DNA of 55,971 bases from a virus. The notes beneath the pieces were generated by a model. The model had not been told where the DNA came from. It saw nothing but the letters and a program-made list of their open reading frames with translations, and did no database searches. The stretch lies in the IMG/VR virus record IMGVR_UViG_3300045988_144994; one strand, written 5' to 3'. Positions 93 through 55,971 of this stretch are shown piece by piece (position 1 is the stretch's first letter; every line of letters begins with the position of its first letter). Made by a program: the position numbers and the translations under genes.

Positions 93-118
93 GACCGGGA
101 CTATTCCCCGGTCTTTTT
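93..118. terminator. Hairpin gaccggg-actattc-cccggtc followed by T5; bidirectional terminator candidate
   Basis: 7-bp GC-rich stem 93-99/107-113 with T-run 114-118 and an A-rich 5' flank. The integrase stop codon (101-103) lies in the loop. Confidence 0.5.
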
Positions 119-1351
119 ATATAATACATAGTCTATTACTTTTCTATTTGCTTCGTCTACTTGTGTGTAGTCATATTCACGGTATTTCTCAATAACTTTT
201 TGCGACGACCGCATTTGTGCTTTGTCTATTGTTTCGTCTGGTATTCTAAGTTTACCTGCAATTGTGGCCCACGAATGGCGGGCATAGGCAAAGGTAAAGT
301 ATTGTATTTTATCCTTCGAATCGCGCTTGTTATTTATTTTGTCTATTGATTCTCTGATGCTTTCGTTTACTATGCGTAAAAGCGTTGCACGGTCCGTATA
401 TAACGTTTTTATCAATCTTGTTTTTGATGAATCCGCATATCGATTAATAATCTCTATTATTTCCGGTTGAAGTGTAAGTTTTAGCTTTACTTTATTACCG
501 GCTTTTCTGAATGTCTTTAGTCTTTTTACATCTATTCCCCTCTCAAAATATGGCATATAAAATATATCTTTCATGTTCATACCGCACAGAAAGAACGACA
601 AGAATAGAAAATCTCTCCCTATTCCCGTTGTATCGTAAATCTGTTTCAATACACCTGCTTCAATACACCTTATTTCCGTGTCGTAATCCGAAGGTATTTT
701 GAAATTTCGGAAAGGGTATAAGTCGGCACTTATCAAACCGTCTCCAATTGCAATATTAAAGATTCTCTTTATATTCCGTAGATGCTTATTAAAGGTTACT
801 TCCTTGCCTTTGTACTTTAAGAAATACGCCTTTAACTGGATAAGAGCGTTCCTGTCTATACTTTGGAAATGAATAATTTCAGATTTGAAAAATTCAATCA
901 TAAGGTTTTTTGTTCCTTCAAAGGTAGAAGCATATCCGCTTCTTTTTAATTCTTCGGGTGCTTCTTCATTTTTAAGGTCTTCTATTTGCTTTGAGATAAC
1001 CCCAATGAAATCAGATACAGATTTTAGAGGTTCTTGGGATTTAGAATTGATATTGTCGTAGGTGACAAATAACTGCTTTAAGGTTTTGACGGATGCATTT
1101 TTTACCGAATCACCGAGTTCTTTATAATAAGTCTCATATCTGCTTTTTTGAGCAAATAGATCTGAATTCCATTTTGCTGCTTCTTGGAATTCCTTCTTTA
1201 TTATCCCATTATCAGGGTCAAAAAAAGTGGGTTCAATATAATAGATAGTTGGAATAAAGGTGGGATCTTCCCCTTTTTTCTTAATCTTAATTTTAATATT
1301 CCCTTTCCCTGTTTTCCCTGAAACGTCTCTTAGCACTACACTTAATTCCAT
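101..1351 (-). CDS. int: Tyrosine recombinase / phage integrase
   Basis: 416-aa ORF. The C-terminal region FTFAYARHSWAT...KYREYDY fits the HxxR and catalytic Tyr pattern of tyrosine recombinases. It lies next to a tRNA-fragment attP. Confidence 0.9.
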   Translation of the reverse strand: MELSVVLRDVSGKTGKGNIKIKIKKKGEDPTFIPTIYYIEPTFFDPDNGIIKKEFQEAAKWNSDLFAQKSRYETYYKELGDSVKNASVKTLKQLFVTYDNINSKSQEPLKSVSDFIGVISKQIEDLKNEEAPEELKRSGYASTFEGTKNLMIEFFKSEIIHFQSIDRNALIQLKAYFLKYKGKEVTFNKHLRNIKRIFNIAIGDGLISADLYPFRNFKIPSDYDTEIRCIEAGVLKQIYDTTGIGRDFLFLSFFLCGMNMKDIFYMPYFERGIDVKRLKTFRKAGNKVKLKLTLQPEIIEIINRYADSSKTRLIKTLYTDRATLLRIVNESIRESIDKINNKRDSKDKIQYFTFAYARHSWATIAGKLRIPDETIDKAQMRSSQKVIEKYREYDYTQVDEANRKVIDYVLYKKTGE

Positions 1352-4377: not shown

Positions 4378-4423
4378 CCGGGGCAGTCCGCTGTAACTGT
4401 AGCAATATCTTGGACTACCCCGG
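4378..4423 (+). other. 12-bp hairpin (1 mismatch) immediately 5' of tRNA-Thr
   Basis: ccggggcagtcc (4378-4389) pairs with ggactaccccgg (4412-4423). The loop is 22 nt. Confidence 0.5.
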
Positions 4424-4429
4424 CAACCT

Positions 4430-4502
4430 GCCTACTTAGCTCAGTTGGTAGAGCATCGGTTTTGTACTCCGAAGGTCATCCGTTCGAACCGGATAGTAGG
4501 CT
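4430..4502 (+). tRNA. tRNA-Thr (anticodon UGU)
   Basis: 73 nt. Acceptor gcctact/agtaggc (7/7 pairs), D arm gctc-agttggta-gagc, anticodon arm tcggt-tttgtac-tccga (one U.U pair), V loop aggtc, T arm atccg-ttcgaac-cggat. Confidence 0.85.
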
Positions 4503-4606
4503 CAAAAAGTAATTGATTAATAATAAATTGAAGAAAAATGTTGCGGAATTTAGAAAATATTTGGTCGGAAAGCTTGGTTAATTCAGAGGAATTTGCCATG
4601 TTTGCA

Positions 4607-4793
4607 GTGCCAAATCATATTACCGTTGGTTCTTTGTGTAGTAAAGAATCATTAATTCCGTATAACAGCGGGGTTTCTCTGACATATACAGTTTTACAAC
4701 GGTATAGTGATTTGGCGATCAGGAGAGGCTCCGCTTCTTCTTTTGTAAAGAAAATATTATTAATCAAATTTTTAGTTGTCAAATGCCAAATCA
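4607..4793 (+). promoter_or_regulatory. Leader element E0: start-mimic / anti-start / start triad
   Basis: gccaaatca (4609-4617) pairs with tgatttggc (4708-4716), and accgttg (4622-4628) pairs with caacggt (4697-4703). The sequence tgccaaatca recurs at the start codon (ATG 4783, copy 4784-4793). Confidence 0.5.
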
Positions 4794-5073
4794 CGCTAAA
4801 AAATTTGAAGCAGAAACCACAGGTGTATCTACTTCACAGCCTAAAAAGACAGTATCTAAACTGGAAAAAGAAATCATCTCTATCCAGAAGAAAGTATCCA
4901 AGCTACAAGAGGAATGCAGACACGAACGAAATGAAAAGTATCGCCTGCTGTGCTACATTAACAGGTATTGTTCAGCACTGTTCCCTTACTTCGACAGAAG
5001 TAACCCGGTTGATTCCAAAAACTGGGAAAAGGTACACCGCCTCCAGCTGGATCTGGATAAGGAAATAAAGTAA
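4783..5073 (+). CDS. Small coiled-coil protein
   Basis: 96-aa ORF. It is preferred over the overlapping 4538..5068 ORF, whose product looks non-protein-like. It resembles the 13705 ORF in layout (MP.. N-terminus, coiled coil, Cys/Tyr-rich tail). Confidence 0.6.
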   Translation: MPNHAKKFEAETTGVSTSQPKKTVSKLEKEIISIQKKVSKLQEECRHERNEKYRLLCYINRYCSALFPYFDRSNPVDSKNWEKVHRLQLDLDKEIK

Positions 5074-12350: not shown

Positions 12351-12740
12351 ATGGAAAAAATCACAGACAAAATTAAATCCTTCGAGGATGCTTGCAAGCA
12401 TCTCGGACTTAACCCTAACGACCTGCCGGTTGTAGATATGCTACCCGAAAAAGATAGAAAATCAATTATTGCATACTACAAGCTGACAATCATTACAAGG
12501 GCACTAAATGAAGGATGGGAACCGGACTTCTCCAACTGGAATGAATACAAGTACTACAATTGGTTTTACGTTGAAGAAAACAAAGACCAGCGTTCCTCGG
12601 GTTTTCGTTGCGACGGTACGGGCTACGCGTGTGCGGACGCGTATGTCGGCTCTCGGCTTTGCTTTAAAAACAGAGAACTGGCTAAATACGCCACAGAACA
12701 ATTCAAAGAACTATACCGTGAATATTTACTTATTCTTTAA
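12351..12740 (+). CDS. Hypothetical protein, paralog 1 of a tandem pair
   Basis: The C-terminus SSGFRCDGTGYACADAYVGSRLCFKN...EQFKELYREY parallels that of the next gene. Confidence 0.6.
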   Translation: MEKITDKIKSFEDACKHLGLNPNDLPVVDMLPEKDRKSIIAYYKLTIITRALNEGWEPDFSNWNEYKYYNWFYVEENKDQRSSGFRCDGTGYACADAYVGSRLCFKNRELAKYATEQFKELYREYLLIL

Positions 12741-12750
12741 AAGAAAAAAC

Positions 12751-13224
12751 ATGGAAAAGACATTAAAGATTACAGAAGAACAAGCCAAAGAGCTTTATCA
12801 GGAAGTATCTCCTAAATTTAAGGAGATACTTGAATTAAACTTTGGCAAGGGTACATTCTTGAAAAACTTTCAAGATACCGTGAAGACCTACGAGGATGCT
12901 TGTGCAATTATTGGTGAAAAGCCGATAGATGAAGAAAATCTGCTAAGTTCAGGGCTTGACAAATCGGATATTGCTTTCATGAAGTTAAAGGCAATATACA
13001 AAGCCGCAAACAAGATGAATAGAAACTGGAAAGCGGATTTTTCCGATTCAAATCAACATAAATATTACCCGTATTTTGTTTGGCGTTCCTCGGGTTTTCG
13101 TTACGTCGTTACGGACTACGCGGTTACGTGCACGAATTTCGGCTCTCGGCTTTGCTGTGGAAATTCGGACGATGCAGAATACATCGGGAAACAATTTGAA
13201 GACTTGTACAACGATTATTTTTGA
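12751..13224 (+). CDS. Hypothetical protein, paralog 2 of a tandem pair
   Basis: Start set at the internal ATG (MEKTLKITEEQ). The C-terminus reads SSGFRYVVTDYAVTCTNFGSRLCCGN...KQFEDLYNDY. Confidence 0.6.
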   Translation: MEKTLKITEEQAKELYQEVSPKFKEILELNFGKGTFLKNFQDTVKTYEDACAIIGEKPIDEENLLSSGLDKSDIAFMKLKAIYKAANKMNRNWKADFSDSNQHKYYPYFVWRSSGFRYVVTDYAVTCTNFGSRLCCGNSDDAEYIGKQFEDLYNDYF

Positions 13225-13251: not shown

Positions 13252-13464
13252 ATGAGCAATAATTTATTCACACCAGAAGACAGCGAGCGGATAGAATTAC
13301 TCTGTCAGCTTAATCGCTTAGAGGCTCCCGTAGAAAAGTTACGGGAGCTTGTTGTTTATACAGAAAAATATAACCGCAAAAAGGAAAGGGAGGAGGGAAA
13401 GAAACAACATCCTGAACGGTTTCCCCGGGGTTCCATTCCCCGGCAGGGACAAATCTTACATTAA
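13252..13464 (+). CDS. Hypothetical small protein
   Basis: 70-aa ORF. Confidence 0.45.
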   Translation: MSNNLFTPEDSERIELLCQLNRLEAPVEKLRELVVYTEKYNRKKEREEGKKQHPERFPRGSIPRQGQILH

Positions 13465-13507
13465 ATTTTGCAATTATGGATAATAGCCGTATATTTGTGG
13501 TGTTCAA

Positions 13508-13717
13508 CTGCCAAGACGAACAACATAAATTACGTTAGAAGGGTGTTTTTATGCCCTATTATTTCTTGAATTTTCAAGTAAAATATAGGCCGTCGAAATT
13601 CCTTCGTTGCATAGCCCTTCATCGTAAGTGTTATGTTCGTCTTGGCAGATAACGGGAAAGTCGGCGGCTTTCTTATTTTTATTAACTTATAATTCATCAA
13701 CGTAATGCCAAGACGAA
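13508..13717 (+). promoter_or_regulatory. Leader element E1: start-mimic / anti-start / start triad
   Basis: ctgccaagacgaaca (13508-13522) pairs with tgttcgtcttggcag (13634-13648). Inner helices are ttacg/cgtaa and gaaggg/cccttc. A small hairpin gaaag-tcggcgg-ctttc plus a T-rich run lies at 13656-13683. tgccaagacgaa recurs at ATG 13705 (copy 13706-13717). Confidence 0.5.
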
Positions 13718-13998
13718 GTGAATCTGTAAGTAATGTGAATCATAGTACCATTACAGCACGTCCACCCCGACGAAACGAGGGTAAATTACTTTCCGAAGTA
13801 AAAGAGTTGCAACAACAACTAATCCAAGTAAGACAAAAATTAGAGATCGAAAAGAACTGCAAGAATCAGGCGTATTACTTTATTCTCAGTTCCGGCAACT
13901 TCAGAAAGTTTGCTGAGTTCCACAAAACGCATAAGGCAAGCCTTGATTATCACGGAGCTTGCATGGCGCAGCTTTATCTTGATTCGTTTGAAAAATAA
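13705..13998 (+). CDS. Small coiled-coil protein
   Basis: 97-aa ORF. Its layout is similar to the 4783 ORF. Confidence 0.6.
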   Translation: MPRRSESVSNVNHSTITARPPRRNEGKLLSEVKELQQQLIQVRQKLEIEKNCKNQAYYFILSSGNFRKFAEFHKTHKASLDYHGACMAQLYLDSFEK

Positions 13999-14013: not shown

Positions 14014-14727
14014 ATGGAAGAATTGATTATTACTTCTAACGATGGTAGAATGTCATCGTTAGAAATTGCACAGATTACCGAAAGAGAACACAAAGATGTC
14101 ATGCGTTCAATTCGAAACATGGAAGAATCTTGGTTAAAAATAGCCGGGCGCAATTTTGCGCTGGGCACGTATAAAGATGCTAATAAGCAAGATAGACCAT
14201 GCTATTATCTGACAAAAACCGAATGTTTATATGTCGCAACAAAATTCAATGACGAAGCAAGGGCTAAATTGGTTTTACGTTGGGAACAATTAGAAATAGA
14301 AAAGCGAACAGAACAAAGCAATCTTTCCCCGGCTGAAATGCTTCTCAAACAATGTCAGATCATGGTAGAACATGAAAAGAGATTGTCAACCGTTGAGCAG
14401 AAAGTTAATGAGGTATTAGCTATTCGGGAAGAAGCGCAGAAAGACATGTTATCACTCCCTCTTTCTACTGATGCTGTTCCTGAATTAAGCATGAGAGATA
14501 AAGTCCTTGCTTTGGTAAACAAATATTCCATGCACTTCAATGTTCCTCAAAAGAATGTGTGGGACCATATTTACCAAACCCTTTATTACAATTATCATAT
14601 TGCACTGCGTTCCTACGCCAGAAAGAAAAATGAGAGTCTTATTGATGTAGCTGAACGTGTAGGCGCATTGGATAAAATGTACGCAATTATTTCAAACCTA
14701 TCAAGGCAAAACGGATTAGTAGCATAA
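14014..14727 (+). CDS. Rha-family phage regulatory protein
   Basis: The N-terminus ITSNDGRMSSLEIAQITEREHKDVMRSIRNM is typical of the Rha family. Confidence 0.7.
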   Translation: MEELIITSNDGRMSSLEIAQITEREHKDVMRSIRNMEESWLKIAGRNFALGTYKDANKQDRPCYYLTKTECLYVATKFNDEARAKLVLRWEQLEIEKRTEQSNLSPAEMLLKQCQIMVEHEKRLSTVEQKVNEVLAIREEAQKDMLSLPLSTDAVPELSMRDKVLALVNKYSMHFNVPQKNVWDHIYQTLYYNYHIALRSYARKKNESLIDVAERVGALDKMYAIISNLSRQNGLVA

Positions 14728-19564: not shown

Positions 19565-20362
19565 ATGGAAGAACACATAAAGCGTAGTATTAATTTAATT
19601 CAAAAGTTACAAACAGATGAAATCTATAATCTAGGTTTTTCCGGAGGGAAAGACAGTATTGTATTGCTGGATCTAGCGAAAAGATCTCAGGTCCCATTTA
19701 ATGCTGTTTATTCAAATACTACAATAGACCCTCCTGGCACAATTAATTTTATCCGGAAAAACTATCCAGAAGTAAAAATAGTAAACCCTAAAGAAAGTTT
19801 TTTTAAGCTTGTAGCACGTAAAGGATTACCATCTAGACAGCGCAGATGGTGTTGCGAAATTCTTAAAGAAAATTATGGAATTGGGAAGAGAAATTTAGAG
19901 GGGATGCGATGGGAAGAATCTTCTGTAAGATCTGGATATGAACCGGAGCAATGCGACGTAAGAAAGAATATGGAAGGTGCTATTCATGTTCTTCCGATAC
20001 TTCATTGGACGGAAAATCAGATATGGGAATACATATACAAACAAAAACTTCCATATATGCTATATTATGATCCTCCTTATAACTTTACAAGGCATGGATG
20101 TGTCGGCTGTCCGCTTGCATCAAAAACGCAAATGCAACTTGAATTTAAATATTTTCCCAAATATGCATTCGCGCTTTTGAAGTCGATTAAAGAATATCAA
20201 ATAGCAAAACCAGATTCATTCTGGGGCAAAAACTTTTCAAACGAATATGAGGCATTTTATTACTATTTGCACGAGATGACTGTTCAAGAATTTAAATTTT
20301 TAAAAACTGCCTCTTTATTTCAAAATGATTTTGAAAGTATAATTAAAAACTGGCTAAAATGA
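19565..20362 (+). CDS. PAPS-reductase-family / PP-loop ATPase (DndC/IbrA-like)
   Basis: PP-loop GFSGGKDS near the N-terminus and a later Cys-rich region (RRWCCEILK ... HGCVGCPL). Confidence 0.8.
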   Translation: MEEHIKRSINLIQKLQTDEIYNLGFSGGKDSIVLLDLAKRSQVPFNAVYSNTTIDPPGTINFIRKNYPEVKIVNPKESFFKLVARKGLPSRQRRWCCEILKENYGIGKRNLEGMRWEESSVRSGYEPEQCDVRKNMEGAIHVLPILHWTENQIWEYIYKQKLPYMLYYDPPYNFTRHGCVGCPLASKTQMQLEFKYFPKYAFALLKSIKEYQIAKPDSFWGKNFSNEYEAFYYYLHEMTVQEFKFLKTASLFQNDFESIIKNWLK

Positions 20363-20505
20363 ACAAAGATCTAACAAACAAAATCCTGCCTTATTGCGGG
20401 CATGGTCTGAAAGTGATATATGAAGATTATTTGTGTTGAATCGTTAAAAAATAATCCCTATGCAGAATGATTTTGATTTGTCGGAAAAATGCCGTATGTT
20501 TGTAG

Positions 20506-20704
20506 TGTCTATCATACTAAGAGGGCGGTAAGTCCGCCAAAACTGCGGGCATTTTTTATGCCTTAAATCGATATACGGTTTCATTACCCCCGTGTGGAGT
20601 GTTAATGCACCCACAGCCCTCTTAGGTGATAGACAGCGGGAAAGGATGGAACCGTTTTTTATTTCTATCCAAACATATCAAATTCTTAGGGATAATGTCT
20701 ATCA
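20506..20704 (+). promoter_or_regulatory. Leader element E2: start-mimic / anti-start / start triad
   Basis: tgtctatca (20506-20514) pairs with tgatagaca (20627-20635), and taagaggg (20518-20525) pairs with ccctctta (20617-20624). A T6 run lies at 20655-20660. tgtctatca recurs at ATG 20695 (copy 20696-20704). Confidence 0.5.
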
Positions 20705-20988
20705 CGGAAAAGAATTTGCTAACATCGGTACAAGGTATTGATGAAGCACGTTATGCCCACGAAACGGCTAAAACTACTGTAACTATTCCTTCAATCAACG
20801 TCGAAGAACTATTGGAAATCTCTTCAACACTAAGAGGCGACGAAGCAATTATCGAGGTGTCCAACCTTGTCGAATTTAATCATGATGAACCGGATCTTGA
20901 ATACGCTTTGAGGTGTGTTTGCCGGTTCTATGCGAAAGTTTCGTATCTTGTTGACAGAATGAAGCAGATATTAACCGAAGAAAAATAA
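20695..20988 (+). CDS. Hypothetical protein
   Basis: Start set at the internal ATG (MSITEKNLL). The upstream part of track ORF 20626..20988 lies in the structured leader. Confidence 0.55.
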   Translation: MSITEKNLLTSVQGIDEARYAHETAKTTVTIPSINVEELLEISSTLRGDEAIIEVSNLVEFNHDEPDLEYALRCVCRFYAKVSYLVDRMKQILTEEK

Positions 20989-20994
20989 CCTATT

Positions 20995-21708
20995 ATGAAC
21001 GAAATAATTAAAATTACTGAATCGAACGGCAAACAAGCTGTTTCGGCAAGAGAATTATATAAATTTCTTGAAGCTACCGAACGCTTTAATAATTGGTTTG
21101 AACGTCAATTACAATATGGATTTGTAGAAAACATTGACTATGTAGGGTGTAAACAATTTAACACCCTTGCAAATCAGGAACTTAATGATTACGCTTTAAC
21201 TATTAATTGCGCTAAAGAAATTTCAATGCTCCAGCGCAACGAGAAAGGCAAACAAGCACGTCAATATTTTATAGAAGCAGAAAACAAATACAGACAGTTG
21301 CAACAGACCGGAGGTTTTCAAATTCCGAAGTCTTACTCTGAAGCTCTAAAATTAGCAGCCAGCCAAGCGGAACAAATCGAACAACAGCAAAAACAAATCC
21401 AACAGCAAGCTCCGAAAGTCCTTTTTGCTGACAGTGTTTCCGCTTCTCATACCTCCATCCTTATCGGAGACCTTGCAAAGATTTTAAAACAAAATGGAGT
21501 TGAGATCGGTGCCAAAAGGCTATTTGTGTGGATGCGGAGGAATGGTTATCTGATAAAGAAACCTGGTATGAGCTATAATATGCCATCGCAAAGAGGAATG
21601 AATCTTAATTTGTTTGAAATTAAAGAAACGGTAGTGACACATTCTGACGGACACACTTCAATAAACAAAACCGTTAAAGTTACCGGAAGGGGCAAATCTA
21701 TTTTGTAA
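20995..21708 (+). CDS. Phage antirepressor (AntA-like N-terminus plus KilAC-like C-terminus)
   Basis: The N-terminus GKQAVSARELYKFLEATERFNNWFERQLQYGF is AntA/AntB-like. The C-terminus ILIGDLAKILKQNGVEIGAKRLFVWMR is KilAC-like. Confidence 0.7.
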   Translation: MNEIIKITESNGKQAVSARELYKFLEATERFNNWFERQLQYGFVENIDYVGCKQFNTLANQELNDYALTINCAKEISMLQRNEKGKQARQYFIEAENKYRQLQQTGGFQIPKSYSEALKLAASQAEQIEQQQKQIQQQAPKVLFADSVSASHTSILIGDLAKILKQNGVEIGAKRLFVWMRRNGYLIKKPGMSYNMPSQRGMNLNLFEIKETVVTHSDGHTSINKTVKVTGRGKSIL

Positions 21709-23055: not shown

Positions 23056-24261
23056 CTACCCATGAGCTAAAGACTCATGGGCTTCGGGTTTCGCAGAGGA
23101 ACGGCCTTTCAAAAGATTGGCTCTTACTTCCTCTCCACCCGTGTAATCGACAGTTCCTGCCGATATATGGTTTAATCCGAAACGAAGAATATTGATAGCA
23201 GCATTAACATCACGATTATGATGAGTATGACAAATAGGACACTCCCACTCACGGACAGACAAATCTTTAGTCTGTTTGTTGACATACCCACAGACATTAC
23301 AAGTCTGCGAGGAGGGGAAGTATCGGTCTATTTTTACAACCTTTTTGCCGTTCCATTCTGCCTTATAGGTAAGCATGGAAACGAAGCTGCCCCAGCTTGC
23401 ATCGGTAATAGACTTGGCAAGGTGATGGTTTCTCTCCATTCCCTTTACATTCAAATCCTCGATGCAGATGGTATCATATCTTCTAACAAGGGAAATGGAG
23501 CACTTGTGCAGATAGTCTGTACGGCTATTGGAAATCTTATCGTGAAGTCTGGCAACTTTGAGCCTTTGGTTTTCAAACCCTCTGCTGCCTTTCTTCTTAC
23601 GGGAAAGATGTCGCTGTGCTTTAGCAAGTTTGCGCTCGTATTTTCTTGTGTATCGGTTATTCTTAAAAGTTTCTCCCTCAGAAGTGATAAGCAAGTCCTT
23701 CAAACCCATATCCACACCAACCGACTTGTTAGTCTTTTCAAGCGGAGTTGCGTATTCTTCTTCTGTAAATACAGAAACGAAATACTTTCCGCTTGGTGTC
23801 TTGGAAATAGTTACCTTACCGATTTCACCTTTTATCTCACGGTGTACACGGCACTTGATGCCCTCCTTGAACTTGGGTATGAAAAGCCTGTCACCTGCGA
23901 CAGATGCAAATTGTGGAACGGTAAAACTATTCTTAGAGTGCTTAGATTTGAAGTTAGGAAACTTCGCCCGCTTCTGAAAGAAATTGGTATAGGCTACTTC
24001 AAGACTGCGGATAGCGAACTGCAAGGTTTGAGAATTTACTTCTTTAAGCCATGCGGTTGCTTCCTGCTTCTTCAATGCGGTAAGCGATTTAGCCTGTGCA
24101 TAGTAATTATCGCTCTTACCAGTGAGCCTATATTGTTCCTTACGCTGATTGAGAAAGTAGTTGTACACAAACCGAGCGCAACCGAAATGTCTTGCCAGCA
24201 AATCGGCTTGCACCTTAGTCGGGTACAGTCTGAACTTGTATGTTCGATTAATCTTTCTCAT
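23056..24261 (-). CDS. tnpB: TnpB (RuvC-like RNA-guided nuclease, OrfB family)
   Basis: Start set at the internal ATG (MRKINRTYKFRLYPT), the typical N-terminus. D...E...D RuvC segments are present, with zinc finger CNVCGY...CPICHTHHNRDVNAAINI. Confidence 0.9.
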   Translation of the reverse strand: MRKINRTYKFRLYPTKVQADLLARHFGCARFVYNYFLNQRKEQYRLTGKSDNYYAQAKSLTALKKQEATAWLKEVNSQTLQFAIRSLEVAYTNFFQKRAKFPNFKSKHSKNSFTVPQFASVAGDRLFIPKFKEGIKCRVHREIKGEIGKVTISKTPSGKYFVSVFTEEEYATPLEKTNKSVGVDMGLKDLLITSEGETFKNNRYTRKYERKLAKAQRHLSRKKKGSRGFENQRLKVARLHDKISNSRTDYLHKCSISLVRRYDTICIEDLNVKGMERNHHLAKSITDASWGSFVSMLTYKAEWNGKKVVKIDRYFPSSQTCNVCGYVNKQTKDLSVREWECPICHTHHNRDVNAAINILRFGLNHISAGTVDYTGGEEVRANLLKGRSSAKPEAHESLAHG

Positions 24262-24321
24262 TTCGCTTACAAAGATAGCAATTATTTCGTAAACAGCCAA
24301 AAGTTTATGTATATTTGTGGC

Positions 24322-24726
24322 ATGAAAGAAAATTATAATCACGAGAATAGACACAAGTATTACCTAAAGTGCCATCTTATCTTCTGTATCAAATACAGGA
24401 GAAAGATACTCAAAGGTGAGTTTGATGACAACATTAAAGCCATATTTCAGTCAATAGCTGACAATTCAGACTTCGATATAGACATCATGGAAACCGACAA
24501 AGACCACATACACTTTCTTATCAGCTATCCGCCAAAACTATCCGTAACATCAATAGTAAGGAAGCTAAAGCAGGAGAGTACAGTCTTTTCGTGGCGCTTA
24601 TATGGCAGTATGTTGAGAAAATACTTTTGGAAAGAGAAAACCTTATGGTCAGACGGATATTTCGTCTGCTCAATAGGCGAGGCTAATCCAAATACAGTTA
24701 TAGAATATATTAGAAACCAGGGATAG
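24322..24726 (+). CDS. tnpA: IS200-type Y1 (HUH) transposase TnpA
   Basis: 134 aa, the last part of track ORF 23218..24726. HUH motif HIHFLISY and C-terminal SDGYFVCSIG...YIRNQ. Confidence 0.9.
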   Translation: MKENYNHENRHKYYLKCHLIFCIKYRRKILKGEFDDNIKAIFQSIADNSDFDIDIMETDKDHIHFLISYPPKLSVTSIVRKLKQESTVFSWRLYGSMLRKYFWKEKTLWSDGYFVCSIGEANPNTVIEYIRNQG

Positions 24727-55835: not shown

Positions 55836-55916
55836 TGAATTTAAAAGCAATCTGCGCTTGCGACAACCAAACGGTATCGTTGTGTTTCAATTCTACCTAG
55901 TCCCATTAAAAGAATA

Positions 55917-55971
55917 TAAGTTTTTGAGGGATAGACGTAAGTTTTTGAGGGATAGACGTAAGTTTTTGAGG
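55917..55971. repeat. 21-bp tandem repeat array; right copy of the 55-bp terminal duplication
   Basis: Identical to 1-55. Confidence 0.95.

Follow-up and report, generated by a model that had tools for sequence, protein, structure and literature searches.

Layout of the E2 leader and its genes

The window, the whole 55,971-nt stretch of viral DNA that was analysed (IMG/VR record IMGVR_UViG_3300045988_144994), carries three leaders of one build, E0, E1 and E2. E2 lies at 20495-20704, where a promoter is followed by an arm L, a structured core, an arm R, a helix T ending at a U-run, and the ATG of a small ORF. The features of E2, its sister leaders and the linked genes are as follows.

20472..20502, + strand: Bacteroidota-type promoter, from sequence (TTTG, -33, 20472-20475; TAnnTTTG -7 box TATGTTTG, 20495-20502)
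20506..20525, + strand: L arm, 5' strand of helix P1 (outer 20506-20514, UGUCUAUCA; inner 20517-20525)
20524..20562, + strand: core hairpins P2 (20524-20538, ggcgg-taagt-ccgcc) and P3 (20548-20562, ggcau-uuuuu-augcc), from sequence and fold
20575..20592, + strand: 5' strand of the T helix (outer 20575-20584, ACGGUUUCAU; inner 20589-20592, CCCG)
20593..20615, + strand: hairpin P4, UGUGG-A-GUGU uaau GCAC-CCACA, from fold and compensatory change
20617..20635, + strand: R arm, 3' strand of P1, antisense to the start-codon region in its outer 9-10 nt (20626-20635)
20637..20661, + strand: 3' strand of the T helix (20637-20640 and 20646-20655), then the U-run (20655-20660); candidate intrinsic terminator
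20662..20669, + strand: segment D (UUCUAUCC), which can pair with GGAUGGAA of the T 3' strand (20643-20650) after read-through
20678..20685, + strand: TCAAATTY motif, conserved, lying 10-20 nt ahead of the start codon
20695..20704, + strand: S, ATG 20695 plus UCUAUCA, complementary to R and the same as L from position +2
20695..20988, + strand: 97-aa ORF, predicted to be controlled by the E2 leader
20995-21708: AntA/KilAC anti-repressor gene, 6 nt after the 97-aa ORF
4597..4793, + strand: E0 leader (box 4597-4604, L 4608-4617, R 4708-4717, ATG 4783 of a 96-aa ORF)
13490..13717, + strand: E1 leader (box 13490-13497, L 13509-13521, R 13635-13647, ATG 13705 of a 97-aa ORF)
14014-14727: Rha/anti-repressor-like gene downstream of E1's 97-aa ORF

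A sequence-only reading of this DNA had described E2 as a structured leader, and when the sequence was re-read all of its strings were found where it had placed them. The words tgtctatca (20506-20514) and taagaggg (20518-20525) pair with ccctctta (20617-20624) and tgatagaca (20627-20635), the hairpins now called P2 and P3 (the latter ggcat-ttttt-atgcc in DNA) and the T-run at 20655-20660 are present, and ATG 20695 is followed by tgtctatca (20696-20704). The outer L arm is a copy of the start region minus the A of AUG, and a window-wide search found the exact 9-mer tgtctatca in three places, all within E2. Folding of the 216-nt stretch gave z = -4.4 against dinucleotide shuffles. The window was also scanned for triads, consisting of a word, its reverse complement and the word again (k = 9), which returned five loci versus a mean of 0.4 in 200 shuffles; in three of them the third copy was located at position +2 of an ATG, and the other two were AT-rich low-complexity matches. 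The element stands well outside chance expectation. The direct repeats at 12590-12727 and 13083-13220 (D2) were rejected as further triad elements, being paralogous coding sequences of phrog_11581.

The three window copies have a common architecture and are unlike in sequence, as is true of the leader copies in general. With default filters, a covariance model built from E2 alone missed both E0 and E1 in the window, and with the filters off it scored other leader types at only 8-18 bits, which is weak, with correct placement. The cores of the E0, E1, E2, F and G leaders are largely unalignable. Homology of E0, E1 and E2 is suggested by these results, not proven. The cultured Bacteroides phage BF8P1 is without triad leaders. 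Only one contig carries an inverted L segment, in an E1-type leader, as seen once orientation was resolved.

We take the TAnnTTTG/TTTG motif to be a promoter from general knowledge of Bacteroides promoters. Equivalent -7 boxes lie ahead of E0, E1 and all 18 variant leaders collected from relatives, and the block AATAATCCC...GCCGTATGTTTG is kept in all relatives, even beside a different upstream gene. A search of species-representative genomes did not find the exact promoter word. From the position of the motif, transcription is predicted to start at ~20504-20508, at the 5' edge of the L arm, which would make L the 5' end of the RNA. The sequence-only reading had also listed a 25-codon uORF spanning the left arm. 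This ORF does exist, but it begins (ATG 20489) ahead of the -7 box and encodes a peptide without conservation among alleles, with frame shifts and lengths from 13 to 29 aa, and hence its translation, or even its transcription from this promoter, is very unlikely; it is the one part of that reading that found no support. A uORF with ribosomal hopping was rejected on the same two grounds and because the frames of L and S differ. L as the mimic of a leaderless start was likewise rejected, since the position of the ATG's A is occupied by G, C or C, reading CCG in allele C, and L is therefore not a start codon.

The order of a small ORF and then a gene encoding a protein with an AntA, Rha or KilA-N domain was found in the window and in distant relatives, where a KilA-N protein gene follows the small ORF; not all three leaders precede ant-like genes. 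The small proteins are ~97 aa, hydrophilic and predicted to be helical, without membrane-peptide character, and S lies in their hypervariable, disordered N-terminal tail. AlphaFold modelling of the E1-type small protein gave a pLDDT of 65, too low to justify a fold search. A type I toxin-antitoxin module was rejected, as the products are hydrophilic, of ~97 aa, and always linked to Ant, Rha or KilA-N genes. Core types and small-protein types reassort: allele E combines an E2-like core with an E1-like protein, and variant F_2 has the E2 promoter with a different core. No protein repressor was recognised in the lysogeny module with Pfam and PHROGs, several ORFs there being unannotated. Another gene, 2.5 kb downstream of E2, encodes a Y1 (IS200-like) transposase domain. 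Hosts were inferred via the small-protein family, and E2 probably forms the 5' leader of an early operon in a temperate phage that infects gut Odoribacteraceae.

Covariation of L, R and S in relatives

Three-way covariation in relatives had been named beforehand as the decisive test of the element, and it was present both in the alleles of E2 and in 18 distinct leaders. Relatives from gut viromes and metagenomes fall into discrete alleles: L, R and S vary jointly, and codon 2 is TCT, CTT or ACT. The three strands of E2 alleles A, B and C, which display this covariation, are listed below.

Allele A: GTGTCTATCA / TGATAGACA / ATGTCTATCA
Allele B: GTGCTTATCA / TGATAAGCA / ATGCTTATCA
Allele C: CCGACTATCA / TGATAGTCA / ATGACTATCA

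The alleles recur clonally, and the L/R/S differences lie inside leaders that are otherwise about 93-95% identical. In the alignment of the 18 variants (A5), the L and R registers were picked by best pairing, which inflates the paired fractions (L:R, 90.6%; R:S, 88.0%) but not the covariation, because S was anchored on the start codon. Changes on both sides were found in 12 of 13 L:R pairs and in 10 of 13 R:S pairs. The covariation score was 0.80 for L:R and 0.69 for R:S, versus 0.22 and 0.21 after shuffling, and none of 500 shuffles reached the observed score in either case. When the registers were slid, only 31-44% of L:R and 30-49% of R:S positions were paired. A MAFFT alignment proved structurally wrong for alleles E and D and was replaced by alignment-free duplex tests and a strand-concatenated alignment. 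The R:S pairing of allele E is broken into 5 + 6-7 bp; the third copy of allele D falls on a GTG, with the first ATG 18 nt farther downstream. The alignment-free comparison of leader:start duplexes gave a mean of -17.9 kcal/mol for cognate and -9.9 (sd 2.5) for non-cognate combinations, and the cognate duplexes land on R. These results support the proposed leader, in which the closing helix has a 5' strand that imitates the start-codon region.

At inner R positions the partner in L is U, giving G.U, and the partner in S is C, giving G-C, indicating that the pairings are made at the RNA level and on the + strand. In E1_3 and in the E0 and F variants, the + strand favoured L:R pairing over the - strand by 6-17 kcal/mol; the E2 alleles are without strand asymmetry in L:R, and the G.U evidence comes mainly from the sister families. 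Within the core, P2 shows compensatory changes in allele B (GGCGAG/CUCGCC), and P4 changes from G-C to A-U in allele B with an additional C-G swap in allele E in the alignment. A P3-like hairpin with a U-rich loop is present in most variant families, and it is on this hairpin that the covariance model aligns. The TCAAATTY motif is kept in most of the 18 variants despite otherwise divergent leaders.

The T helix and a proposed two-state leader

The sequence-only reading had further proposed an alternative fold that ends at the T-run, formed by cggtttc (20576-20582) and ggaaccg (20647-20653). These two words are complementary, but the helix is longer than it had stated, pairing 20575-20584 with 20646-20655 and 20589-20592 with 20637-20640, and the fold is backed by compensatory changes. 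In the E2 alleles the T helix is 100% paired, with one compensatory and one G.U-to-A-U change, and a T helix of 8-13 bp abuts a U-rich run in all 18 variants, with differing sequences. Cognate T strands gave a mean of -15.5, versus -9.8 for non-cognate strands. As in an intrinsic terminator, a G+C-containing helix lies directly before U6, likewise in all 18 variants; its long loop keeps it from being flagged by a simple hairpin scanner. The pairing of segment D with the T 3' strand is present in the minimum-free-energy fold. Compensatory changes in this pairing in alleles B, C, E and D were judged by eye.

Folding of the leaders showed two-state behaviour. P1 was formed by the free RNA in all 14 variants folded, and blocking of the first 30 nt caused T to form, with R enclosed and exposed, in 14 of 14. 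The minimum-free-energy folds therefore switch between P1 and T in every one of these variants, and the two helices share no nucleotides. When L was blocked in full-length RNAs, R paired with S in four of six. P1 became the minimum-free-energy fold immediately once R was made, and it is predicted to be more stable than the OFF fold by ~20 kcal/mol, and hence the switch would sit ON unless L is removed or occupied. No factor that removes or occupies L could be identified from the sequence. We infer that P1 and T exclude each other, on the steric argument that the helices cross without linkers; the two might still coexist in a compact pseudoknot.

E2 is real and conserved and appears to be an undescribed RNA switch before an early operon of a gut-bacterial virus, and we consider a two-state leader its probable mode of action. 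The RNA would begin at the L arm and adopt one of two mutually exclusive folds. In the ON fold, L would pair with R in P1 (17-18 bp), closing the whole core and keeping the T 5' strand from its 3' partner, so that polymerase passes the U-run; the T 3' strand would then be occupied by segment D, with the start codon free. In the OFF fold, with L unavailable, T would form right against the U-run and cause intrinsic termination, leaving R unpaired within T, and in transcripts that escape, R would pair with the AUG and codons 2-4 and block initiation. By this pairing scheme, L would be a decoy that occupies the anti-start strand. The host does not use Shine-Dalgarno sequences, which makes masking of the start codon sensible, and in such a host it could replace Shine-Dalgarno masking. 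The switch probably sets whether the operon, including the anti-repressor gene, is read. As for the input, we favour, with low confidence and only as a hypothesis by analogy, an R-carrying RNA, namely the leader's own T-form after termination or processing, which would capture in trans L of nascent leaders and S of mRNAs, like phage P4 CI with seqA and seqC.

Taken further, this input would make E2 an immunity RNA of the C4/CI kind, a possible though doubtful reading that extends the cis switch and does not replace it. The terminated or processed T-form (T, P4 and an exposed R loop) would be a stable antisense RNA that forces termination when bound to L and blocks translation when bound to S of mRNAs, so that the anti-repressor operon stays off in lysogens and likewise in superinfecting phages that carry the same allele, with alleles A, B, C and so on as heteroimmunity classes. 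The logic resembles that of P4 CI, in which seqB pairs with upstream seqA and downstream seqC to cause premature termination, and that of C4 of phages P1 and P7, which masks the ribosome site of an ant-carrying operon with a 4-nt difference setting specificity; the gene order is that of c4-icd-ant and isrK-orf45-anrP. The discrete, clonally recurring alleles, with joint changes of L, R and S in leaders of 93-95% identity, agree with it but could also come from module exchange and compensatory drift. The location of S in a hypervariable, disordered protein tail and a conserved AU-rich RAUAU|A at the 5' foot of T, which could be a processing site, are consistent with it as well. The lysogeny module lacking a recognised protein repressor is weak evidence, given its unannotated ORFs. 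Against trans action, the terminated RNA retains its own L, and intramolecular P1 is far more stable than trans pairing, so that processing or kinetic trapping would be needed; the Rfam C4 and IsrK models are also unmatched. Somewhat more doubtful still is a system of immunity or commitment built on RNA alone and specific to the allele, which phages of Bacteroidota would have evolved independently, with a self-templated antisense RNA for each early operon. If true, three orthogonal RNA locks would silence the prophage, and the L/R/S alleles would define heteroimmunity groups of co-circulating gut phages.

P1 closing a multi-stem junction ahead of an expression platform is an aptamer-like build, and the leaders share a U-rich-loop hairpin, GGGAARG after R and, in E2-type leaders, the P4 GUUAAUG loop; the core P2-P4 with its junction might therefore be the binding site of a metabolite or of a protein from phage or host (possibly that of the small ORF), and binding would stabilise or disrupt P1. 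We consider this unlikely, because the cores are largely unalignable across families (8-18 bits), unlike a ligand-binding aptamer, no Rfam riboswitch matched, the reassortment of core and small protein argues against specific autoregulation by the latter, and the model does not require S to covary with L. In the early leaders of T7 and lambda, a 5' duplex is cut or protects the 5' end, and P1, a helix of about 17-20 bp right at the 5' end with very high predicted stability, could similarly be an RNase III processing site or a stabilising stem whose likeness to the start codon is incidental. This is a rather improbable reading, as it leaves the conserved T helix with its U-run and the use of G.U in L versus G-C in S unexplained, as it does the R:S covariation over 18 variants, which contradicts a stem as the sole function. 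An element acting at the DNA level, be it a miniature transposon (terminal inverted repeats plus a duplicated target) or a site of recombinase action or inversion, would fit the presence of inverted and direct repeats, the contig with the inverted L segment and the nearby Y1 domain, but it is already contradicted and highly improbable. The direct repeat does not flank the inverted repeats, contrary to a MITE or IS, and the copies are alike in architecture, not sequence. Moreover, the order is always promoter, element and start codon on the coding strand, the G.U pairs, which are common, would turn into A-C mismatches at the DNA level or if the opposite strand were used, and complementarity is kept by compensatory changes, not by identity.

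To our knowledge, Bacteroidota and their phages have very few known cis-regulatory RNAs, and lysogeny control in gut Bacteroidales phages is almost unexplored. The E2 family adds an apparently new class of regulatory RNA in this understudied group and offers a nucleotide-level model with four covarying helices and natural alleles, the predictions of which are open to compensatory mutation. It also suggests that a protein's N-terminus can be shaped by a constraint acting on the RNA. If the trans reading is true, RNA immunity in the style of P4 and P1 would have been invented independently here; the family would then help to address superinfection exclusion among prophages of the human gut, and it could supply Bacteroides engineering with three-strand switches that are orthogonal and programmable.

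Comparison with known regulatory RNAs

The sequence-only reading had called for an Rfam check, and no known family matched, even at E <= 10: cmscan of 20300-20800, 4400-4850 and 13400-13780 gave noise, with no C4, IsrK, T-box or riboswitch. At gathering score, the whole window contained only a tRNA (tRNA-Thr). Classical attenuators and riboswitch platforms resemble E2 in their exclusive helices, a terminator stem at a U-run and anti-sequestor/sequestor logic. Unlike them, E2 is without an identifiable leader peptide, tRNA-binding site or ligand-binding core: no attenuator sensor was found, the uORF being unconserved, T-box and riboswitch models unmatched and the cores divergent, and the E2 covariance model found no conserved ligand-binding core across leader types. 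Also unlike them, the candidate terminator helix of E2 is long-range and encloses the sequestor strand, and what would be sequestered is the start codon and coding sequence, so that the protein's N-terminus must co-evolve with the leader.

The closest analogues, judged by likeness of organization, appear to be C4 of P1/P7, CI of P4 and IsrK of Gifsy-1. As in these systems, R is complementary to an upstream site (L) and a downstream site (S), with three-way covariation, and the leader lies upstream of a small ORF and then an anti-repressor gene, the same order of RNA, small ORF and anti-repressor. C4, from the immI operon c4-icd-ant, is an antisense RNA that lies ahead of its target on a shared transcript; the target is where translation starts on a small ORF preceding the anti-repressor gene, and a 4-nt difference in C4 and its targets sets P1/P7 specificity (PMC5320573, PMC8201110). 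E2 likewise has an antisense strand upstream on the target transcript, a small ORF before an anti-repressor gene and allele differences of a few nucleotides. C4 (RF01695) is 77 nt with three stem-loops, is matured by RNase P and masks the ribosome-binding site with loops a' and b', whereas E2 is ~150 nt with another fold, would mask the AUG and codons 2-4, has a built-in candidate terminator, does not match RF01695, and occurs as three copies per genome, not all before ant-like genes.

IsrK, from isrK-orf45-anrP, is a promoter-proximal RNA with a Rho-independent terminator and partial read-through, and alternative folds of the read-through mRNA decide on the small ORF and the downstream anti-repressor-like gene (PMC4825925). 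E2 is similar in its candidate terminator-ended leader RNA, alternative folds, small ORF and downstream anti-repressor-like gene. The default read-through fold of IsrK is translationally OFF and the short RNA activates in trans, whereas the thermodynamic default of E2 is predicted to be ON and its antisense strand would be repressive; the Rfam search detected no homology between the two. P4 CI RNA is transcribed from the regulated operon's own promoter, and its seqB pairs with upstream seqA and downstream seqC, upon which the early operon terminates prematurely (PMC4825925). E2 would likewise be transcribed from the promoter of the operon that it regulates and would end that early operon prematurely. 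It belongs to a phage of Bacteroidota, not of Enterobacteria as P4 does, has no Rfam sequence or structure match, and would act in trans or be processed only hypothetically; its downstream site is the start codon itself, and its upstream site is the very 5' end, which forms a long intramolecular helix with the antisense strand. In both, one leader-derived strand is complementary to an upstream and a downstream site on the same transcript.

Triads and the genes behind them

The strings listed in the sequence-only reading of the E2 leader (~20495-20704) were all found where it had placed them. The 9-mer TGTCTATCA occurs at exactly three sites in the window, namely in the 5' arm (L, 20506), as its complement in the antisense arm (R, 20627) and over the start codon and first codons of the ORF (S, 20696), and the E2 region folded far better than shuffled sequence (z = -4.4). 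Scanning for triads (word, reverse complement, word; k = 9) returned five loci against 0.4 expected. At three of the five, E2 and the similarly built leaders E0 (~4597-4793) and E1 (~13490-13717), the third copy lies at position +2 of the ATG that opens a 96-97-aa ORF (~97 aa behind each leader), and a TAnnTTTG box, which we take to be the Bacteroides -7 promoter motif, lies 3-11 nt upstream of the first copy (3/3). Because this motif is just upstream of L, the leader RNA is predicted to start at L or just before it.

Triads and the genes after the small ORF (next gene 6-16 nt downstream, of varying type)
E0: 4609/4708/4785; leads recombination genes instead
E1: 13509/13636/13706; Rha/anti-repressor-like protein
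E2: 20506/20627/20696; AntA/KilAC anti-repressor
Distant relatives: KilA-N protein

Only 5 clusters were found for the E2 ORF, an orphan; the E1-type small-protein family is broader (55 clusters), corresponds to no Pfam family and invariably has its gene beside one for a KilA-N, Ant or Rha protein. Its C-terminal domain is conserved (EKNCKNxAYYFILSSGNFxKFAEFHKxHxxxLDYHGAC in alignment A4), and its N-terminal tail, which contains S, is hypervariable over 20 residues and predicted to be disordered. An 18-residue coiled-coil insertion is present in part of the family.

The window is a ~56-kb phage genome in which early genes (for recombination, replication, and Rha and Ant functions) form a long block on the + strand and structural genes are on the - strand. 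The same 55 nt stand at both ends (1-76 / 55896-55971), made of ~2.6 tandem copies of the 21-nt unit TAAGTTTTTGAGGGATAGACG. The simplest reading is a circular or terminally redundant genome whose assembly overlap fell by chance within a short tandem repeat beside the integrase gene; alternatively, the shared stretch could be part of an attachment or arm-site region.

Other features of the window
101-1351, - strand: tyrosine integrase, Bacteroidota-type
4430-4503: tRNA-Thr gene (anticodon TGT), ~90 nt 5' of the E0 promoter; relative L074 has two tRNA-like stretches in its place
12351-12740 and 12733-13224: adjacent phrog_11581 paralogues (unknown function), which explain the 138-nt direct repeat 12590-12727 / 13083-13220
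23218-24726, + strand: 502-aa ORF, IS200-like Y1 HUH transposase domain at the C-terminus only (residues 380-501)
23056-24354, - strand: 432-aa ORF, overlapping nearly the whole 502-aa ORF on the opposite strand

The closest cultured relatives are Bacteroides phages, with only distant similarity, and several matching metagenome contigs are labelled human-gut. Since proteins of the small-ORF family are known from Odoribacter splanchnicus and are also present in Butyricimonas genome assemblies, the hosts are probably Odoribacteraceae of the human gut.

Joint change of L, R and S

The module of promoter block, leader and ORF was also found in IMG/VR and metagenome contigs, sometimes behind another upstream gene, and leader type, promoter block and small-protein type reassort between phages. 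The leaders fall into a few discrete, clonally recurring alleles, across which L, R and S change in concert; one B-type leader (2 contigs) has a single S mismatch.

Arms of three E2 alleles
Allele A: L GTGTCTATCA; R TGATAGACA; S ATGTCTATCA
Allele B: L GTGCTTATCA; R TGATAAGCA; S ATGCTTATCA
Allele C: L CCGACTATCA; R TGATAGTCA; S ATGACTATCA

The same joint change was seen in E0- and E1-type leaders and in further leader types found via the small-protein family, two of them in Butyricimonas genomes. Covariation was scored on 18 distinct variants, with S anchored on the start codon and the three strands concatenated.

Covariation in 18 variants
L:R: 90.6% paired; 12/13 pairs changed on both sides; score 0.80 (shuffled 0.22; reached by 0/500 shuffles); slid registers 31-44%
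R:S: 88.0% paired; 10/13 pairs changed on both sides; score 0.69 (shuffled 0.21; reached by 0/500 shuffles); slid registers 30-49%

In an alignment-free test, cognate leader:start duplexes averaged -17.9 kcal/mol versus -9.9 (sd 2.5) for non-cognate ones, and the cognate interaction fell on R. In four well-aligned E2 alleles, the structure composed of P1 (helix L:R), the core hairpins P3 and P4 and the long-range helix T was 98.9% paired, with 5 pairs changed on both sides, versus ~36-44% when registers were slid by 1-3 columns. The three-way covariation that the sequence-only reading had named as a test in close relatives is present, and its interpretation is essentially right except for the uORF, which starts upstream of the TAnnTTTG box and whose peptide is not conserved.

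Several families have U in L where S has C, both opposite G in R (E1_3, UUU vs CCC; E0_2, E0_3, L156, L159). At the inner columns, L:R pairs are most often U.G, while R:S pairs at those R positions are most often G-C, and in six variants L:R gained 6-17 kcal/mol on the + strand relative to the complement. Such a pattern would be lost in a DNA repeat or in RNA of the - strand, so L:R and R:S are RNA pairings on the + strand. R:S is almost wholly Watson-Crick and L:R longer yet softened by wobble pairs, which looks like energy balancing of two competing helices.

In one E1-type leader (L038 = L172, IMGVR_UViG_3300045988_177419), the 12-nt L-arm core AATTGGCAAAGC is swapped for its own reverse complement between 6-bp inverted repeats (GTGCTC/GAGCAC), leaving two anti-start strands and no decoy. 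The inversion was seen only in two loci from this contig, among 43 loci of the E1 leader type (non-unique count). Unless this is an assembly error, the contig would hold a naturally occurring "locked OFF" mutant.

Helix T and a probable two-state leader

The proposed cggtttc/ggaaccg pairing, an alternative fold ending at the T-run, proved to be part of the longer helix T (20575-84 with 20646-55, plus 20589-92 with 20637-40), whose 3' strand runs straight into U6 and which encloses P4 and the entire R arm. Compensatory changes occur among E2 alleles (CAU/AUG to CAC/GUG; U.G to U-A). All 18 variants have an 8-13-bp helix at this position ending at a U-rich run, with widely differing strands (e.g. 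CGGUGCUAC/GUAGCACUG, GGCCGUCGA/UCGGCGGCU, AGCUACUC/GAGUAGCU); cognate pairs averaged -15.5 kcal/mol versus -9.8 for non-cognate ones. After read-through, the T 3' strand has a further possible partner in segment D (20662-69), which by eye covaries as well.

Several other leader motifs were observed. TCAAATTY (20678-20685, 4765-4772 and equivalents in most of the 18 variants), 10-22 nt 5' of the start codon, is conserved although the leaders are otherwise divergent, and may serve for ribosome loading or bind a protein in these mRNAs without Shine-Dalgarno sequences. The AU-rich RAUAU|A directly 5' of T (20570-20575; ~14/18 variants) is a candidate endonuclease site that would part the decoy half from the antisense half. 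A small terminator-like hairpin (20532-20556; GUCCGC-CAAAACU-GCGGGC, then AUUUUUU) competes with P2 and P3 and is weaker or missing in alleles B and E. E1-type L040 (IMGVR_UViG_3300029686_000026) has a 9-nt deletion of most of the T 5' strand (AAGTCGTCGAAGTCC to AAGTCC), and would be a natural terminator-less variant if the deletion is real.

P1 and T share no nucleotides; because they cross without linkers between T5', P4 and R, we infer that they are mutually exclusive. Free RNA formed P1 in all 14 variants folded. When the first 30 nt were blocked, T formed abutting the U-run and enclosed a largely unpaired R (14/14), and in full-length RNA with L blocked, R paired with S in 4/6. P1 is the minimum-free-energy fold once R is transcribed; since it would form as soon as R is made, the modelled default should be read-through with a free start codon.

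These results suggest, with fair probability, a two-state leader. With P1 formed (ON state), transcription would be antiterminated and the AUG left free; with T formed (OFF state), transcription would terminate and R:S would mask the AUG. The flip to OFF would require L to be occupied or removed, because the OFF fold is less stable than P1 by ~20 kcal/mol. The most economical trigger, proposed tentatively by analogy with P4, would be an RNA bearing R, i.e. the T-form of the leader acting in trans; if true, this would also account for the discrete alleles.

The E2 finding is real, and chance is excluded. The divergent cores, and the reassortment of leader and small-protein types, speak against a riboswitch or protein sensor. 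An RNase III or stability stem leaves both S and T unexplained. The G.U pattern contradicts a DNA-level element.

Relation to known phage RNAs

Rfam yielded no family match for E0, E1 or E2, even at E <= 10, and the literature searched described no such element in Bacteroidota phages. Three RNAs of enterobacterial phages come closest in logic. P4 CI RNA pairs with seqA upstream of itself and seqC downstream, causing premature termination (PMC4825925). P1/P7 C4 RNA, which is processed out of the c4-icd-ant transcript, acts by masking the ribosome site, and a 4-nucleotide difference sets the P1/P7 specificity (PMC5320573, PMC8201110). Gifsy-1 IsrK is a terminated leader RNA with a read-through form whose alternative folds determine translation of orf45 and the anti-repressor-like anrP (PMC4825925). 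All three share with the present element the order RNA, small ORF, anti-repressor. However, the fold of the present leaders is unrelated, and what they would mask is the start codon plus coding sequence instead of a Shine-Dalgarno site. They have a decoy at the 5' end to keep the antisense strand engaged in cis, wrap that strand in the candidate terminator helix and occur in three copies per genome. The element belongs to an apparently undescribed phage leader RNA family that would operate in the manner of the C4/CI/IsrK group without being a member of it.
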